Part shown: one piece after another, positions 463 to 9,440 of the stretch
How the letters are laid out: every line of letters starts with the position of its first letter
Position numbering within the stretch: the stretch's first letter is position 1
Assembly (NCBI RefSeq): GCF_001038205.1
Contig: NZ_JWIZ01000003.1
Location: 71,281 to 103,280 of the forward strand
Length of the DNA stretch: 32,000 nt
Origin: Muribacter muris
Lineage (GTDB): Bacteria > Pseudomonadota > Gammaproteobacteria > Enterobacterales > Pasteurellaceae
Reading direction: 5' to 3'
Made by a program: the position numbers and the translations under genes
The notes under the pieces: model-generated
Told to the model about the DNA's origin: nothing
The model's database searches: none
What the model saw: only the letters and a program-made list of their open reading frames with translations

Positions 463-591
463 ATCTTTCAATATCAATAATGAAATGCGTTGATGGTGGA
501 ATTTTTATAAAAATAAATAGCTTAAATTAAAACGTAGTCTTTTTATGGTGATAAAATTATGGTGATTTGAATTTTGTCATTTTGTACGAAG

Positions 592-987
592 TTATTGAGT
601 AGAAGATTTTTTAAGTAGCTCAATAATTTGTTGCAGCATTGCGATTTCTTTTTTCTGCATTTCAATAACTTCTTCTTTATGAGATAATTCTTGTTTTAGA
701 TTTTTAATTTCAAACGCAATTTCTTGGGAAGAACCCATTATATTTAAACTATTACTGACAACGCTTTCCTGGAAAAACATCACATTTCGCTCACCTATCG
801 AAATAAGTTCCAGCATATCCATATCTAATATATTCGCAATTTGTTCTAGCCGTTCCGTATTTATTTTGCTTTCGCCTCTTTCTATTTTTGAGTAACCGTT
901 AGTGGACATATTCAATTTACTTGCCATTTCTTCTTGCGACCAATTTTTTGTTTCTCGCAAATGGCGGATTTTTTCGTTTATTTTCAT
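592..987 (-). CDS. XRE-family helix-turn-helix transcriptional regulator (131 aa) with a C-terminal coiled-coil tail
   Basis: MKINEKIRHLRETKNWSQEEMASKLNMSTNGYSKIERGESKINTERLEQIANILDMDMLELI is a typical HTH_XRE/Cro-CI domain. The C-terminus (EIKNLKQELSHKEEVIEMQKKEIAMLQQIIELLKK) is heptad-like. I prefer the ATG at 987 over the TTG at 999 used by the ORF track. Very AT-rich. Confidence 0.8.
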   Translation of the reverse strand: MKINEKIRHLRETKNWSQEEMASKLNMSTNGYSKIERGESKINTERLEQIANILDMDMLELISIGERNVMFFQESVVSNSLNIMGSSQEIAFEIKNLKQELSHKEEVIEMQKKEIAMLQQIIELLKKSSTQ

Positions 988-1006
988 TTTTACCAACAAT
1001 TAAGAC

Positions 1007-1099
1007 ATTACCCCAACTAAAAGGGGAGAAAAAACAACAGTGGGTTGATTGTAACATAAACTCAAGTCAGATGATAATAGCCAAAAAATTACCCACTAA
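1007..1099. promoter_or_regulatory. Divergent promoter/operator region between the XRE gene and the exported-protein operon, with three copies of an ACCCAC-containing motif
   Basis: ATTACCCCAACTAA (1007-1020) and ATTACCCACTAA (1088-1099) are direct copies; AGTGGGT (1039-1045) is an inverted copy of ACCCACT. Candidate minus-strand extended -10 is TGtTACAAT (1056-1048). Candidate plus-strand -35 is GTAACA (1051-1056) with -10 GATAAT (1073-1078), 16-nt spacer. The two promoters overlap back to back. Confidence 0.35.
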
Positions 1100-1111
1100 T
1101 TTGGAGTTACT

Positions 1112-2134
1112 ATGCAAATAAAAAAATCCCTTTATGCTTCGATATTACTTGGTTTAAGTATGTTCTCGCAAGCAAAAATTTTTGAGGCGTCTGGTGTAGG
1201 CAATACACCTGAATTAGCTAAAAAAGATGCAGTGGCAAATGCGATTAAATTTAGCGTTGGAGAAACAATCGTCAGTAAAGAGGAATTAAATAACGAGCAA
1301 TTTACACAGAGAATTGTCGGTTATTCTGACGGATATGTAAAAAATATCGAGATTATATCGAATATCCGTTTACCTAATGGGGGCTATGAAGCATCCGTAA
1401 AAGTAGATATTGAAAGCCAAAAGCTGATAGGCACATTAAAAGAAATGAATGTTGCCGTACTTGAAAATGCAATTGATAATACAAGTTTAATGGAAGCAAT
1501 AGCTCATTTTGAAAAAAAAGATGCGAATGAAAAGTCTAAAAATGATTATAAGACTCTTGCAGAAGAATTATTATTAAAGCCAATTCAGGAAGGTAAAAAA
1601 ATTATTGATATTGAAATTGTTGAAAAACTAAAACCGCTTAAGCCAAAAGAGAATTCTGATTTATTTCCTTTTGAATTTTCTGCGAGTATTGGTTTAAATC
1701 AGACTTATATTGAAGGGTTTAAAAAATTACTAGAGACAGATAAATCAAAAAATAGTATTAGAGAAGTGAGAGAATTATCAGATATGAATTCTGAAAAACT
1801 ATTGAATATATTTTATATTTCTGATGAGAAGAGTCAAATTCTGAACGATGTACTTAAAGAGGTTAATCGTTTGTTTGGCTATGATAAAACTATTATAGTA
1901 AATTTAATTAATAAAGATGGAAGTAAACCTCAATTATATAATAGAAAAGTAGTTGATTCTAGCTATTATGAAATAGGTGGTAATGACTCGGCACTACTTT
2001 TGTATCTTCCTGAAATTTATAGTAATATTTCAAGATGGCCTTATTTTTATTCTAAGAAAAATAATGTAAAAATTAAGCTCTATTTAACTAAAACTGATCT
2101 GTTAAATTTAAAAGATATAGAACTAACGTATTAA
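1112..2134 (+). CDS. Exported hypothetical protein (340 aa); Sec signal peptide; N-terminal LPP20/FlgT-N-like pattern; C-terminal ~230 aa unassigned
   Basis: GGAG lies 6 nt upstream of the ATG. MQIKKSLYASILLGLSMFSQA/KIF is a classic n-h-c signal peptide with no lipobox Cys. Mature N-terminus: FEASGVGNTPELAKKDAVANAIKFSVGETIVS...GYVKNIEII...GGYEASVKVDIE. No cysteine anywhere. Ends ...DIELTY. Confidence 0.75.
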   Translation: MQIKKSLYASILLGLSMFSQAKIFEASGVGNTPELAKKDAVANAIKFSVGETIVSKEELNNEQFTQRIVGYSDGYVKNIEIISNIRLPNGGYEASVKVDIESQKLIGTLKEMNVAVLENAIDNTSLMEAIAHFEKKDANEKSKNDYKTLAEELLLKPIQEGKKIIDIEIVEKLKPLKPKENSDLFPFEFSASIGLNQTYIEGFKKLLETDKSKNSIREVRELSDMNSEKLLNIFYISDEKSQILNDVLKEVNRLFGYDKTIIVNLINKDGSKPQLYNRKVVDSSYYEIGGNDSALLLYLPEIYSNISRWPYFYSKKNNVKIKLYLTKTDLLNLKDIELTY

Positions 2135-2166
2135 ATGATGAATTTATTTTTAATGAGGAAATCAGA

Positions 2167-2877
2167 ATGAAAAAAATCTTATTTAGTTTAAGTGCAATTT
2201 ACTTATCTCTCTTTTCTCCAATTACTTCTGCGCAGCAAGAGCCTGTTCCCCAGATAAAAAATGAGGCAGAACAATCTGAAGTAGTTGAAATTGTTGATAG
2301 TGTAACGGGAGTAAGCTATGAAGTAGATGAAAATGGAGAATTTGCAAGAATTCGAGCAACAGGCGAAGCTGAGCTTGAATTTGGTGATCGCAAAGATATT
2401 CGTATGGCAACCCAAAAAGCGACGCTAAGAGCAAAAGCAAATATTGCTAAATTCCTTTCAGAGCGTGTAACCAGCGAAGAGGTGATAGACAATGTCGAAA
2501 ACGTTGTAACTAAAACGGAGAATGCAGACAATGTAGCGACTAAAATGGAAAATGGAGAAAATATAACAACTAAGACAGAAAATGGTAACAAAAGCGCGAA
2601 TCGGGAAGTGATATCGAGCTATTTAGAAAAAATTCATAATTCTGCGGAGGCGCTATTAAAAGGCGTTATTGCGACTAAAACAGATATCAATAAAGATGAA
2701 AAATACGTTCAAATAGAACTGGGGATCAGTAAAAAAACAATGGCAGCAGCCGATACCTTAAAAAAGGAATTGCGTACAGACGCAACTGAAAAAAATGCTA
2801 TAAGTAACGGAATACCGATTGAATCAAATGGTGGTGGACGTGAAATTAAGAAATCTAAAAACTACGATAATTTCTAA
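2167..2877 (+). CDS. Exported hypothetical protein (236 aa), LPP20-like pattern interrupted by a 10-aa tandem repeat
   Basis: RBS AGGAAA upstream. Signal peptide MKKILFSLSAIYLSLFSPITSA/QQ. Also IRATGEAELEFGDRKDIRMATQKATLRAKANIAKFLSERVTSEEV ... ALLKGVIATKTDINKDEKYVQIELGI. Cysteine-free. Ends in ...YDNF. Confidence 0.75.
   Translation: MKKILFSLSAIYLSLFSPITSAQQEPVPQIKNEAEQSEVVEIVDSVTGVSYEVDENGEFARIRATGEAELEFGDRKDIRMATQKATLRAKANIAKFLSERVTSEEVIDNVENVVTKTENADNVATKMENGENITTKTENGNKSANREVISSYLEKIHNSAEALLKGVIATKTDINKDEKYVQIELGISKKTMAAADTLKKELRTDATEKNAISNGIPIESNGGGREIKKSKNYDNF
2491..2610 (+). repeat. In-frame 30-bp tandem repeat: 3 good units plus 1 degenerate unit, encoding NVENVVTKTE / NADNVATKME / NGENITTKTE / NGNKSANREV
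   Basis: Units begin at 2491, 2521, 2551 and 2581, each starting AATG. Read directly from the sequence. In frame with the CDS starting at 2167. Confidence 0.8.
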
Positions 2878-3202
2878 CGTTATAGGCATAATCTCTTTTT
2901 TAAGTATTATGCCGGCAGTTGCTAATTCATTTGGTGTTTCTTTAAAAAAAGAGAATGGCAAAATGGTTTATTTTATTGAAACAAAATTGGACACCATAAA
3001 TAGATCGAGAGATAGCCGAGTAGCACCGATATATGCAAAATCACAATTACTTAAGTATTTAAAAAATAAGCATTCATTTGCTTCTGTTGATTTAAAACAT
3101 TTTACTTTATTAAAAGTAGAAAAGCATAATGGATATTCAGTCTTTATTTTTAAAGTAAACAAAAGTAATGTGGTTTTTAAAGAGTTGGCAGCCGATAAAT
3201 AA
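2840..3202 (+). CDS. Small exported hypothetical protein (~120 aa); start uncertain (GTG 2840, ATG 2828 or TTG 2819); overlaps the 3' end of the preceding gene
   Basis: (M)KLRNLKTTIISNVIGIISFLSIMPAVANS/FG looks like a signal peptide. GGTGGTGG sits just upstream of GTG 2840. No in-frame start codon exists downstream of the preceding stop that would keep the signal peptide. Cysteine-free. Followed by a strong terminator. Confidence 0.55.
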   Translation: MKLRNLKTTIISNVIGIISFLSIMPAVANSFGVSLKKENGKMVYFIETKLDTINRSRDSRVAPIYAKSQLLKYLKNKHSFASVDLKHFTLLKVEKHNGYSVFIFKVNKSNVVFKELAADK

Positions 3203-3231
3203 GAATTTATCATTTTAGGTTAATAAGTAAA

Positions 3232-3277
3232 CGGTGGCTTTTGCAGATTTTATGGCAAAAGCCACCGCTTGTTTTTT
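3232..3277. terminator. Rho-independent terminator shared by the convergent exported-protein operon and lysO; contains a USS
   Basis: Stem cggtggcttttgc (3232-3244) pairs with gcaaaagccaccg (3255-3267), 10-nt loop, then cttgtttttt. ACCGCTTGT (3264-3272) is the reverse complement of the USS core. Confidence 0.8.
3239..3272 (-). repeat. USS composite: ACAAGCGGTg-N18-GCAAAA
   Basis: Minus strand reads ACAAGCGGTG GCTTTTGCCATAAAATCT GC AAAA. Confidence 0.8.
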
Positions 3278-4181
3278 ATAACCCGATAAAAAACGACATC
3301 AAAATCGGTACGGCAAGGTTAATGATAAAACCAAAACTGATTGCCAGTGGTACAACTTGAATGCCGCCGGATTTTTGGATAATCGGCAAGGTTGCATCTA
3401 ATGAGGTTGCGCCGCCTAAGCCGACGGCTGTCGAGGGATATTGCCGCATAAAAAACGGAATGGCGAACAGGCAGAAGATTTCTCGGAACAGATCGTTGAA
3501 AAAGGCGATGCTGCCGTACATTGCCCCCCACGCATCGTTGATCAGTACGCTAGAGAGGGAATACCAGCCGAAACCGGCGGTGAGTGCAAGGGATTTAATG
3601 AGCGGTAACCCCAGCACATAAGCGGCAATCACGCCACCGATTAAGCCGCTGACGATAAAAATCAGTGAGGTAATAAGCCCCCGTTTATTCAGAAACACCT
3701 CTTTCAGCGGAATACCGCTGCTGCGTAGCTGAATACCGACACAGAAAATCATCACCACTAACACATAAGTGCTGGAATAGAGCGGGAAATCAACCACGCC
3801 TTTGGTGAAAAAGCCGATAATCCCCCCAATCAACACAGCAAAACAGAGCTGTAACGATTCGCATAAGACTTTTCGGCGGGACGGCAGTGCTTCGGCGTGA
3901 TGGGTTTGACGGGGCATTGGGGCATATTTGTCAAACATCGCCAATGCCAAAATATTGCTGCCGTGCAAAATGTAAGCCAAGCCGAAGGCGGTTGCGCCGA
4001 TTTGCGGCAGCTTAGTTGCCAATTCGTCCAGTTGCCCAAGGGAAATTCCCATTATCAACAAAATCAGATAAAGGCAGTAAAGGCTGATGCGGTTGATCCA
4101 ATGTAGCACGCCGGTGTGTTTGATGACCAGCAGGTAGCCCAAAAATAGCGGGGCAAATGCAATCAGTAAGCCGTAAATCAT
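3276..4181 (-). CDS. lysO: Lysine exporter LysO (YbjE, DUF340 family) inner-membrane protein
   Basis: 301-aa polytopic protein. GFGWYSLSSVLI...AFFNDLFREI...GGATSLDATLPIIQKSGG... aligns with my recollection of E. coli YbjE along its full length. Confidence 0.85.
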   Translation of the reverse strand: MIYGLLIAFAPLFLGYLLVIKHTGVLHWINRISLYCLYLILLIMGISLGQLDELATKLPQIGATAFGLAYILHGSNILALAMFDKYAPMPRQTHHAEALPSRRKVLCESLQLCFAVLIGGIIGFFTKGVVDFPLYSSTYVLVVMIFCVGIQLRSSGIPLKEVFLNKRGLITSLIFIVSGLIGGVIAAYVLGLPLIKSLALTAGFGWYSLSSVLINDAWGAMYGSIAFFNDLFREIFCLFAIPFFMRQYPSTAVGLGGATSLDATLPIIQKSGGIQVVPLAISFGFIINLAVPILMSFFIGL

Positions 4182-7430: not shown

Positions 7431-9440
7431 ATGAAACAGTATCAATTAAAGATGGTTAGCGCGTTGATGGTCGGGCTTTTTTCGGCAATAAATGTAGGTG
7501 CGGTCGAGCCAACGATCAAAGCAAGCGAGCTAATCCTTCCCAAACCCACCCCTCAACACAGCTTATCGGCAAAGCGTGTTACCGCACGTTTAACCCAATC
7601 GCACTATCATAAATTCACCTTAGACGATGCCTTTGCCGGCAAGATTTTTGATCGTTATATTGATTGGCTTGACGGTGCACATAATACCTTTTTAGCCTCC
7701 GATGTCGAGGAAATGCGGGCGAAATATGCCACAAAATTAGATGATGAACTTTATGAAGGCAAACTGGACAGTGCCTTTGAGATTTATGATCTGATGACCA
7801 AACGCCGCTATGAACGTTATAAATATGCGTTATCGCTTTTGGATCACGAACCGGATTTAAAAGGCGATGATCAGATTGAAAATGATCGTGAAAAAGCGCC
7901 TTTCCCTCAAACCCTCGAAGAAGCGAACACATTATGGGAACAGCGGGTTAAAAACGACATTATCAGCCTTTATCTAAAAGATAAAAAATGGCCGGAAATC
8001 AAAAAGACGCTCGTTAAACGCTATAACTTAGCGATCAAACGCCTGACTCAAAATAAAGCGGACGATATTTTACAAACCTATTTGAATGCTTTTGCCCGTG
8101 AAATCGATCCGCACACCAGTTATCTTTCACCACGTGCGGCAAAACGTTTCCAAGAAAGTATGAACCTTTCCCTTGAAGGCATTGGGGCAACTTTAACAAT
8201 GGAAGATGATGTAACGGTGATTAAATCGTTAGTGCCGGGCGCACCGGCGGCCCGTAGCAAAAAAATTCGGGTAAACGATAAGATTATCGGGGTAGGGCAG
8301 TCTGCCAATAAGATTGAAGATGTGGTCGGTTGGCGCTTAGATGATATTATCGACAAAATCAAAGGTAAAAAAGGCACAAAAGTTTACCTCGAAATCGAAC
8401 CGGAAAAAGGCGGTAAAAGTAAAATTGTAACATTGGTGCGGGATAAAATCCGTCTTGAAGACAGTGCCGCAAAATTAACGGTAACGAAAACCGAGGGTGA
8501 AAATATCGCCGTTATCAAAATTCCGGGCTTCTATATTGGCTTGACCGATGATGTGCGTAAATTACTGAAAGAGATGAAGACCAAAAAAGCAGATGGTCTG
8601 ATTATTGATTTGCGTGAAAACGGCGGCGGTTCATTAACGGAAGTGATTGAATTAGTCGGGCTCTTTATTAAAGAAGGGCCGGTAGTGCAAGTGCGTGATG
8701 CCTTTAACCGCATTAAAGTTCACGAAGATCCGGATAATAGCGTGCAATATGACGGCAACATTATGGTGATGATTAACCGCCATAGTGCATCGGCTTCAGA
8801 GATTCTCGCAGCGGCGATGCAGGATTATAATCGAGCGATTATTGTCGGGCAGCAAACCTTTGGGAAAGGTACGGTACAACAGAGCCGCTCTTTGAATTTC
8901 GTGTATGATTTAGACAGAGAGCCGCTCGGTTCTATTCAATATACCATTCAAAAATTCTACCGGATTAACGGTGGCAGTACCCAGTTAAAAGGGGTGGAGG
9001 CGGATATCCGTTTCCCTGAAATTATCAATGCGGAAAAAACCGGCGAAAGTTTTGAAGATAATGCGCTACCTTGGGATAAAATTCCAGCGGCAAATTATAA
9101 AGAACTCGGGCAAGCTCGTAACGCTGTGGCGGCACTTACGGAAAAACATCAGCAGCGGATTGCTAAAGATCCGGAGTTTATTGTTTTAAATGAGGATATC
9201 AGCATTCGTAAAGCGCGTGATGAGCGTAAATTTACCTCGCTGAATTTAAAAGCACGTTTAGCGGAAAATAAAGCCGATGATGCCAAGCGGTTGAAAGATC
9301 TCAATGCCCGCTTTAAACGGGAGGGTAAAAAGCCGTTGAAAGATTTGGATCAGCTACCGAAAGACTATGAAGCACCGGATTTCTTCCTCAAAGAAACGGA
9401 AAAAATGATGGTCGATTGGTTAGAAATTGATAAAAAATAA
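7431..9440 (+). CDS. prc: Tail-specific (C-terminal processing) periplasmic protease Prc
   Basis: 669 aa with a signal peptide, a PDZ region and the S41 core (LIIDLRENGGGSL...NRHSASASEILAAAMQDYNRAIIVGQQTFGKGTVQ). AGGAA RBS 6 nt before ATG 7431. Confidence 0.95.
   Translation: MKQYQLKMVSALMVGLFSAINVGAVEPTIKASELILPKPTPQHSLSAKRVTARLTQSHYHKFTLDDAFAGKIFDRYIDWLDGAHNTFLASDVEEMRAKYATKLDDELYEGKLDSAFEIYDLMTKRRYERYKYALSLLDHEPDLKGDDQIENDREKAPFPQTLEEANTLWEQRVKNDIISLYLKDKKWPEIKKTLVKRYNLAIKRLTQNKADDILQTYLNAFAREIDPHTSYLSPRAAKRFQESMNLSLEGIGATLTMEDDVTVIKSLVPGAPAARSKKIRVNDKIIGVGQSANKIEDVVGWRLDDIIDKIKGKKGTKVYLEIEPEKGGKSKIVTLVRDKIRLEDSAAKLTVTKTEGENIAVIKIPGFYIGLTDDVRKLLKEMKTKKADGLIIDLRENGGGSLTEVIELVGLFIKEGPVVQVRDAFNRIKVHEDPDNSVQYDGNIMVMINRHSASASEILAAAMQDYNRAIIVGQQTFGKGTVQQSRSLNFVYDLDREPLGSIQYTIQKFYRINGGSTQLKGVEADIRFPEIINAEKTGESFEDNALPWDKIPAANYKELGQARNAVAALTEKHQQRIAKDPEFIVLNEDISIRKARDERKFTSLNLKARLAENKADDAKRLKDLNARFKREGKKPLKDLDQLPKDYEAPDFFLKETEKMMVDWLEIDKK

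Follow-up and report, generated by a model that had tools for sequence, protein, structure and literature searches.

Gene content and composition of the island

The DNA analysed here (the window) is a stretch of 32,000 nucleotides of the mouse commensal Muribacter muris (contig NZ_JWIZ01000003.1, positions 71,281 to 103,280). Between tcdA, which ends at position 462, and lysO on the minus strand (3276 to 4181), it harbors an island of 2.8 kb with four genes. One of these encodes an XRE-family helix-turn-helix (HTH) regulator, while the other three, transcribed in the opposite direction, form an operon for the exported proteins A, B and C. The island is clearly an accessory module that has spread horizontally among Pasteurellaceae. 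Its core is the conserved pair of B and the N-terminal domain of A (A-N), which is found in several other phyla as well.

The G+C content of positions 463 to 3275 is 31.0%, compared to 45.8% in the remaining window, and a G+C scan of all 32 kb revealed the island as the sole strongly AT-rich stretch. Third codon positions deviate in the same direction (19 to 29% G+C in the island genes versus 49 to 59% in tcdA, lysO, dinB and htpX), and seven A7 to A8 tracts are located within the island. In a Pfam scan, the flanking genes were ThiF-type (tcdA) and Lys_export (lysO). Protein A is 100% identical to RO21_00975 of Muribacter muris ([Actinobacillus] muris). According to a heuristic check, the N-terminus is basic in A, B and C alike, followed in all of them by a strong hydrophobic core and a signal peptidase I site, with predicted cleavage behind SQA in A (next residue K), TSA in B (Q) and AVA in C (NS), and a lipobox is absent from all three. 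None of the four island proteins, the regulator included, contains a cysteine. This is not a family trait for A, as 16 of 24 A homologs have cysteine in the mature part; it is a trait of the close B family, 38 out of 39 members of which are devoid of cysteine. The operon is followed by a terminator with a 13-bp G+C-rich stem (3232 to 3267) and a U-run behind it. The minimum free energy of the 91-nt stretch from 3200 to 3290 is -27.8 kcal/mol (z = -4.6), a value equalled by none of 200 shuffled sequences.

An earlier reading of this DNA, made from the sequence without database searches (the sequence-only reading), had described a foreign AT-rich segment with an XRE gene on the minus strand, a 124-bp divergent region, a three-gene operon for exported proteins without lipobox or cysteine, and a strong terminator at its end. 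All of these features were recovered in the open reading frame (ORF) list, the HTH_3 match of the regulator, the composition and cysteine counts, the signal peptide check and the folding energy given above. The findings which that reading had named beforehand as speaking against it (assignment of all three proteins to a characterised system, presence at native G+C in every relative at this locus, lack of signal peptides, lack of any fold similarity) were not obtained. The features are listed in Table 1.

Table 1. Features of the island, with positions in the window.
Feature	Position	Strand	Basis
XRE-family HTH regulator, 131 aa, C-terminal half coiled-coil-like	592..987	-	HTH_3
Divergent control region, 124 bp	988..1111	.	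promoter scan, cross-genus comparison
Protein A, 340 aa	1112..2134	+	AlphaFold model, Foldseek, Pfam, hhalign
Hypervariable, recombining segment of A, ~residues 197-330	1700..2100	+	strain comparison, alignment
Protein B, 236 aa, signal peptide 1-22	2167..2877	+	AlphaFold model, cluster searches
30-nt imperfect tandem repeat inside B, 2.6 copies	2508..2585	+	TRF
A7 tract in B	2789..2795	+	other M. muris lineage has A8
Protein C, ~120 aa (GTG 2840) or 124 aa (ATG 2828)	to 3202	+	ORF list, local HMM
Intrinsic terminator, common to convergent lysO	3232..3275	+	stem, U-run CUUGUUUUUU, inverted repeat I1

Occurrence of the module in Pasteurellaceae

The complete arrangement of XRE gene, A, B and C was also found, with the flanking genes given in brackets, in Glaesserella parasuis (znuA-type genes and rsgA), Actinobacillus minor (M16-type peptidase gene and putA), Canicola haemoglobinophilus (mnmA and a cytochrome gene) and Haemophilus haemolyticus (htpG and arsC). 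The XRE gene is missing at three further loci with A-B or A-B-C: in Phocoenobacter uteri between prlC and arsP, in 'Pasteurellaceae bacterium Macca' between argS and a sigma-factor gene, where a different HTH gene lies upstream, and on a metagenomic Pasteurellaceae contig after the atp operon. In total, eight taxa carry the module at eight chromosomal sites. Both sequenced lineages of M. muris hold it at the tcdA-lysO site. In the seven Pasteurellaceae hosts measured, the G+C content of the module is 28 to 33% (approximately 31%; 28% in H. haemolyticus) versus 36 to 46% in the flanks. The accessory nature and the horizontal spread of the module follow from this low G+C content, kept across the hosts, together with the eight different sites, and horizontal acquisition, as proposed in the sequence-only reading, was thereby substantiated.

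No integrase, insertion sequence (IS), tRNA or Rfam family was found in the window, in accordance with the earlier statement that the island has no such flank, and no direct repeats bound the island. A copy of the module was found neither in PLSDB plasmids and INPHARED phages (blastn and tblastn) nor in IMG/VR, which was searched with the A and B alignments. Nothing on the module was retrieved from the literature, which was searched for G. parasuis together with LPP20 and for DUF1425/LpoB/YcfL.

Transposase genes of the IS1595 and Mutator types are located approximately 4 to 5 kb from the G. parasuis module (locus L001, 1007-1657 and 12643-13131), not adjacent to it. A very AT-rich metagenomic contig (L008, 1-10808; flanks with 30% G+C) encodes a divergent A of 383 aa, B and a third gene product of 168 aa, with a type I restriction-modification/Fic cluster on one side and the gene of a large autotransporter on the other.

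An additional cassette of three genes, encoding a small multi-pass membrane protein and two small cysteine-containing lipoproteins, is common to G. parasuis and H. haemolyticus, the gene products of which share 32%, about 50% and 52% sequence identity. It is located downstream of C in G. parasuis (L001, 8062-9436) and upstream of A in H. haemolyticus (L025, 2868-3878). One of the cassette genes is uncalled in G. parasuis (L001, about 8432-8680), and a further small membrane protein of this organism (g6, 9071-9436) is without counterpart in H. haemolyticus. The cassette may provide membrane anchoring. It is not present in the M. muris window, which holds the minimal form of the module.

Protein A combines an SHS2 domain with a lineage-specific C-terminal region

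Protein A comprises a signal peptide (residues 1 to 21), an SHS2 domain similar to FlgT_N and LPP20 (22 to ~113), a long helix and a lineage-specific alpha/beta C-terminal region. In the AlphaFold model (predicted local distance difference test, pLDDT, 72), the SHS2 domain has the topology beta-alpha-beta-beta (E22-30, H33-49, E74-86 and E92-102) and is followed by a helix of 37 residues and more alpha/beta structure. Among the neighbours found by Foldseek in the PDB, FlgT (3w1e) ranked on top (E = 1.6e-3, whole-length alignment); the others were a chain from the cryo-EM structure of the LPHT ring (8z5n_0), HP1454 (4kzs, prob 0.99), Tip-alpha and dodecin (prob 0.95). The match of A to Pfam LPP20 covers nearly the whole profile with 19.3 bits (cut-off 25.9). 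At E ≤ 1, FlgT_N was detected in 14 of the 24 A homologs (best 1.2e-4) and LPP20 in nine of the 24 (best 2.6e-4). When the A alignment was compared by hhalign with N-domains from distant A-like proteins, the probability of the match was 97.1% (E = 5e-11, 114 columns), and the A-like protein of Geomonas exceeds the gathering score of FlgT_N (35.4 versus 28.8 bits). Since hhalign ties A to A-like proteins, one of which passes FlgT_N, the N-domain of A is accepted as a well-supported SHS2 domain of the FlgT_N/LPP20 type, the link being an indirect one. A sequence-profile search of the PDB with the A alignment retrieved nothing relevant.

The identification of A as FlgT proper was rejected, because neither FlgT_M nor FlgT_C was matched in Pfam scans of A and its 24 homologs and the surroundings are not flagellar (neighbours tcdA, lysO, dinB and htpX). 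The heuristic check did not reveal a lipobox in any of the 24 homologs. A lipobox is typical of Lpp20 and FlgP, not of FlgT or HP1454. The sequence-only reading had regarded the lack of lipidation as an oddity; for A it is no anomaly, since FlgT and HP1454, its nearest structural neighbours, are not lipoproteins either.

Residues 50 to 73 of A form a conserved insert of 24 amino acids, which is nearly invariant in the family, has a very low pLDDT and sits between the SHS2 helix and strand 2. In the FlgP/FlgT family, an insert between these two elements correlates with ring formation (PMC12222027). By analogy, the insert of A may be taken as a lead towards oligomerisation, not as a demonstration of it.

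Homologs of A were found in 25 clusters among 5.8 billion proteins, nearly all of them from Pasteurellaceae. The C-terminal 220 residues are restricted to this family and did not match a known fold or family in structure and profile searches, in agreement with the earlier observation that the last 230 amino acids resemble nothing recognisable. In a structure search of BFVD, three uncharacterised entries with the label 'uncultured Caudovirales phage' (A0A6J5P175, A0A6J7WUI0 and A0A6J5LYS9; 325 to 371 aa) matched A over the full length with E-values of 1e-8 to 1e-11, much better than those of any PDB match. These entries may be mis-binned bacterial DNA, because no sequence relatives were found in IMG/VR or INPHARED.

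Protein B and its pairing with the N-terminal domain of A

Protein B is more conserved than A between M. muris and G. parasuis (58% and 37% identity, respectively). Its family comprises 65 close clusters and, at E ≤ 1e-3 in a library of 1.84 billion, 731 representative clusters. Among the taxa with members are Geomonas, Bacteroidales/Muribaculaceae, Kiritimatiellae, Verrucomicrobia and Acidobacteria. The family was not matched by any model of Pfam, NCBIfam, PADLOC or PHROG and is large enough for a family model of its own. B ends in a conserved basic tail with a terminal phenylalanine (GREIKKSKNYDNF, nucleotides 2836 to 2874), which reads GREIKKxKNYDNF in close homologs and is modelled as an extra beta strand. 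Among 107 diverse members, the last residue is phenylalanine in 85 and tryptophan or tyrosine in eight.

In the AlphaFold model of B (pLDDT 74), a strand is followed by long helices, a beta hairpin and, at the end, another helix. The model would be compatible with an SHS2 fold elaborated in the manner of Lpp20 and Tip-alpha, a weakly supported assignment for which the evidence is thin. FlgT_N was matched in two of 39 close homologs at E 0.017, B of the window itself matched neither LPP20 nor FlgT_N, and a sequence-profile search of the PDB with the B alignment gave nothing relevant. The UniRef label 'DUF541 domain-containing protein' (SIMPL family) was discarded, as no such Pfam match was found in B or 146 relatives. 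The tandem repeat within the gene encodes a TKTEN-type insertion of approximately 20 residues, which is found in M. muris only and forms a low-confidence or disordered loop of the model.

A general hidden Markov model (HMM) of the SHS2 N-domain and an HMM of B were run over all fetched loci. B adjoins an A-N-type SHS2 domain, or is fused with it, at all Pasteurellaceae loci and at 11 of 13 loci from other organisms; the two exceptions end at contig ends. The pair is encoded at native G+C in Geomonas, Bacteroidales, Verrucomicrobia, Kiritimatiellae and Acidobacteria, with the Geomonas cluster matching its host in G+C content. The notion of a Pasteurellaceae-specific module was corrected accordingly. 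Fusion proteins of approximately 500 amino acids contain, in addition to the B domain, an SHS2 domain of the A-N type (DGWIECIGxG...) and a part weakly similar to LpoB. In Bacteroidales, an operon encodes, in this order, an A-like protein, a DUF1425 protein (YcfL family, above the cut-off), a B-fusion, B and a TPR protein. That the two co-occur or are fused in different phyla is the best argument for a joint function of A and B, and A-N and B form a conserved core pair.

The DUF1425 gene of the Bacteroidales operon (L014, 2936-3397) belongs to a rumen or gut genome, and an IS200-like transposase gene is found approximately 1 kb further on. In Acidobacteria, a resolvase gene (L022, 1836-2465) is located upstream of the cluster at a distance of about 1 kb, not adjacent to it.

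Protein C and its overlap with B

The start of C overlaps the end of B by 38 to 50 nucleotides, depending on the start codon, and the two reading frames overlap in every taxon examined. The first residues of C (VKLRxLKTTII) are encoded in the other frame of the conserved B tail (2828 to 2877), and because of this overlap the conservation of the C start across genera is at least partly a dual-coding effect. In a word-indexed search, C had no homologs beyond M. muris. With a local HMM, homologs were detected immediately downstream of B in G. parasuis, A. minor, Canicola and H. haemolyticus as well as on the metagenomic contig L009. C is a fast-diverging protein. A pattern of strand, amphipathic helix, strand and strand can be read by eye, on which C might hypothetically be of the LPP20 type. 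The sequence-only reading had associated all three proteins with this type, the third in a weaker version; for A, the topology, the structural neighbours and the profile link bear this out, while for B and C the assignment is weakly supported.

The XRE gene and the divergent control region

The regulator matched HTH_3 (PF01381) well above the cut-off (E = 3.7e-14; 52.9 bits versus a gathering score of 23). Its further matches are generic and include RstR, control proteins and capH as well as PHROG repressors. Homologous divergent XRE genes accompany the module in G. parasuis, A. minor, Canicola and H. haemolyticus, i.e. in five taxa together with M. muris; the proteins of Canicola and H. haemolyticus share 51% sequence identity. 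A promoter scan of the control region gave TTGTAA-18-GATAAT at 1049 to 1078 as candidate operon promoter. The corresponding block, GTTGATTGTA..N..GATAAT, is kept in three genera (M. muris, G. parasuis and A. minor). The link of the module to an XRE gene, as stated in the sequence-only reading, is supported by the divergent XRE genes of the five taxa and by the conserved operon promoter. A palindrome covers the -35 element, perfect in G. parasuis (GATTGT-N3-ACAATC) and imperfect in M. muris, where an inverted 7-mer (AGTGGGT/ACCCACT) additionally lies on both sides of the promoter. The control region is 100% identical in the two M. muris strains. The palindrome-like element is a candidate operator, and repression of the operon by the XRE protein would be the natural reading of this arrangement.

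Variation between the M. muris lineages

The two M. muris strains share 73% nucleotide identity over 1742 to 2134, which corresponds to the C-terminal third of A. Elsewhere (flanks, XRE gene, N-domain of A), the identity is 97.6 to 98.7%, with 97.7% for B and 99.7% for C, and A is therefore a mosaic of conserved and variable parts. The same region of A is rich in insertions and deletions and poorly conserved in the alignment of 24 homologs. Synonymous divergence (dS) is 0.46 to 0.70 and nonsynonymous divergence (dN) about 0.20 in the variable segment, compared to a dS of 0.06 and a dN of 0 in the N-domain, which indicates purifying selection on the latter. From these values, the variable segment is an old allele that was acquired through recombination. 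Recent positive selection on A was rejected as an explanation, as dS is raised as well and dN/dS is below 1.

The A7 tract in B is an A8 tract in the other M. muris lineage. B is thereby frameshifted to 213 amino acids and has lost the conserved tail (L005, 7068-7709). The loci L005 and L006 represent one lineage in two datasets, since they differ by 1 nt in 13 kb. The A8 tract may reflect simple loss or decay, or a low-rate slipped-strand switch.

Proposed function and alternative explanations

For the module as a whole, a scaffold function is proposed as the most likely reading, to which slightly less than even confidence is attached. The operon, a self-contained and horizontally spread unit, would be under the control of a divergent XRE repressor. 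When repression is lifted, A, B and C would be exported by Sec as soluble periplasmic proteins. The SHS2 N-domain of A and B would then build an oligomeric scaffold, either periplasmic or near the outer membrane, to which C would contribute as a small accessory SHS2-like subunit, while the variable, Pasteurellaceae-specific C-terminal region of A would be exposed or face a ligand. Without being flagellar, such a scaffold would be related to the FlgT/FlgP rings and to the Lpp20-HP1454-HP1457 group of Helicobacter pylori. Physical complex formation between A, B and C and exposure of the A C-domain are presumed in this proposal; a ring or scaffold geometry is suggested by the conserved insert of A, because it occupies the position of the ring-forming inserts of FlgP and FlgT. 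The extra strand predicted for the B tail likewise speaks for oligomers.

Several observations weigh against the scaffold. With regard to A, the Foldseek E-values against the PDB are marginal and the TM scores low, the protein of the window stays under both Pfam cut-offs (LPP20, PF02169, and FlgT_N, PF16548), and the C-terminal region is without known fold match. The SHS2 assignment is weak for both B and C. LPP20 was matched in only four of 107 diverse B members (best E 0.12), and the Foldseek PDB matches of B were not significant (FTT1539c, E 0.05; Tip-alpha, E 0.6). In hhalign comparisons with masked signal peptides, A-N and B showed a weak local match of 58% probability (beta2-beta3-helix of A against the equivalent part of B), the helices of C and B matched with 61% probability over 20 columns, and C matched nothing in A-N; unmasked full alignments of A and B matched in the signal peptides alone. 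Furthermore, the M. muris module is without lipoprotein or membrane anchor, unlike those of G. parasuis and H. haemolyticus, and its attachment to the envelope is therefore unexplained. Finally, the frameshift in the A8 lineage could mean that B is dispensable there.

A broader and rather unlikely version of the scaffold would see A-N-type SHS2 domains and B as an unrecognised, widespread non-flagellar ring or cage of the periplasm, drawn from the same structural pool as FlgT, FlgP and the Helicobacter Lpp20 group, of which the Pasteurellaceae possess a mobile, repressor-gated version with an antigenically variable outward domain. SHS2/LPP20-type proteins are mainly known as accessories of the flagellar motor (FlgP, FlgT) and as Helicobacter antigens. 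The A-N/B pair is thus a handle on SHS2 roles outside flagella and on a possible origin of flagellar rings. As the module is mobile, strain-variable and exported, it is furthermore a candidate surface or outer membrane vesicle (OMV) antigen and typing marker, which is of relevance for G. parasuis, a pig pathogen, and H. haemolyticus, a human commensal.

Instead of remaining in the envelope, A, B and C might leave the cell in OMVs and act on the host mucosa or as decoy antigens, with the variable C-terminal region of A under immune selection. Release of this kind is compatible with a scaffold. The known carriers are all host-associated mucosal Pasteurellaceae, HP1454, Tip-alpha and Lpp20 as structural neighbours are immunogenic and either secreted or carried in OMVs, the alleles of the A C-region are old and recombining, and B has a strain-specific repeat insertion. 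However, the core pair also occurs, with native G+C content, in lineages that are free-living or environmental (Geomonas, Acidobacteria, Verrucomicrobia), and dN/dS in the variable segment of A stays below 1. A role as released host-interaction factors or antigens is considered rather unlikely but is the main alternative to the scaffold.

An envelope defence islet, in which a periplasmic module excludes phages by blocking adsorption or DNA entry and the variability of A tracks the phages, would fit an AT-rich mobile element with varied insertion sites, an XRE protein akin to defence-associated HTH proteins (in generic matches), a hypervariable segment in A and three full-length structural matches labelled as Caudovirales. 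It is nevertheless improbable: A, B and C belong to no PADLOC or PHROG family (C had one insignificant PADLOC match, E = 0.04), relatives were not found in IMG/VR, INPHARED and PLSDB, no effector-type domain was found, and the phage entries may be bacterial DNA.

Regulation of peptidoglycan or envelope synthesis by an outer-membrane-proximal factor similar to LpoB or YcfL is suggested by the weakly LpoB-like C-terminal parts of distant A-like and fusion proteins, by DUF1425 in the Bacteroidales operon and by HP1457 of the Lpp20 operon, an LpoB homolog. Yet A of M. muris is without an LpoB-like part, the LpoB matches remained below the cut-off, and a mobile, repressor-controlled accessory module would be an odd vehicle for a core cell-wall function, which makes this role quite improbable.

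A polymorphic secreted toxin in A with immunity in B and/or C, as the conserved N-terminus and variable C-terminus of A and the small genes downstream might suggest, is strongly disfavoured and was rejected, because variation in B and C does not follow that of the A C-terminus (97.7% and 99.7% identity where A has 73%); moreover, no other component is as conserved and widespread as B, both B and C are exported themselves, and no toxin domain was found in Pfam scans of the window proteins and the A homologs.

Comparison with known systems

Searches of NCBIfam, PADLOC and PHROGs gave no match for A, B or C, apart from the insignificant PADLOC match of C. The N-domain of A has the same topology as the Pfam families LPP20 and FlgT_N and the SHS2-like folds of dodecin and Tip-alpha, with near-full-length matches below the cut-off, whereas the LPP20 and FlgT_N models do not recognise B or C. 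By the connection of A to LPP20 and FlgT_N, the module is a variant of a known structural kind and nothing categorically new.

The wider family shares its domain vocabulary with Escherichia coli LpoB and YcfL, as seen from DUF1425 in the Bacteroidales operon and the weakly LpoB-like parts. Neither domain is present in the M. muris module, the proteins of which are also non-lipidated. SHS2, LpoB-like and DUF1425 domains together are likewise the vocabulary of the FlgT/FlgP/FlgO set and of the H. pylori Lpp20 operon.

FlgT, FlgP and FlgO of Vibrio belong to the flagellar H-ring and basal disk. Vibrio FlgT resembles A in size, in the N-terminal SHS2 domain of the FlgT_N type and in the lack of lipidation, and the insert between SHS2 helix and strand 2 is common to A, FlgP and FlgT. 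In contrast to Vibrio FlgT, FlgP and FlgO, the module has no flagellar genes nearby and no FlgT_M or FlgT_C, and the TM scores are about 0.16. MotX, MotY and FlgO are unrelated to B and C. Pasteurellaceae are non-flagellate.

The Lpp20 operon of H. pylori (HP1454, HP1456/Lpp20 and HP1457) is, like the module, a small operon for exported envelope or OMV proteins with Lpp20/SHS2 folds. HP1454 is secreted and has an Lpp20-like first domain, HP1457 is an LpoB homolog, and all of them have been found in OMVs. HP1454 corresponds best to A, both being non-lipidated multi-domain proteins with an Lpp20-like first domain (Foldseek prob 0.99), while HP1457, being LpoB-like, is reminiscent of the parts with weak similarity to LpoB in the module's distant relatives. 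Unlike in H. pylori, a lipidated Lpp20 equivalent and an LpoB-like protein are lacking in M. muris, and sequence homology between the two systems was not detectable. The module is furthermore mobile, AT-rich and apparently XRE-controlled, and B constitutes a separate family with a phenylalanine-terminated tail. This family is new, as is the fact that, in different phyla and outside flagellar contexts, it is strictly paired with or fused to FlgT_N-type domains. The mobile, AT-rich and seemingly repressor-gated version in Pasteurellaceae is new as well, and so is the hypervariable, recombining region in which A ends.

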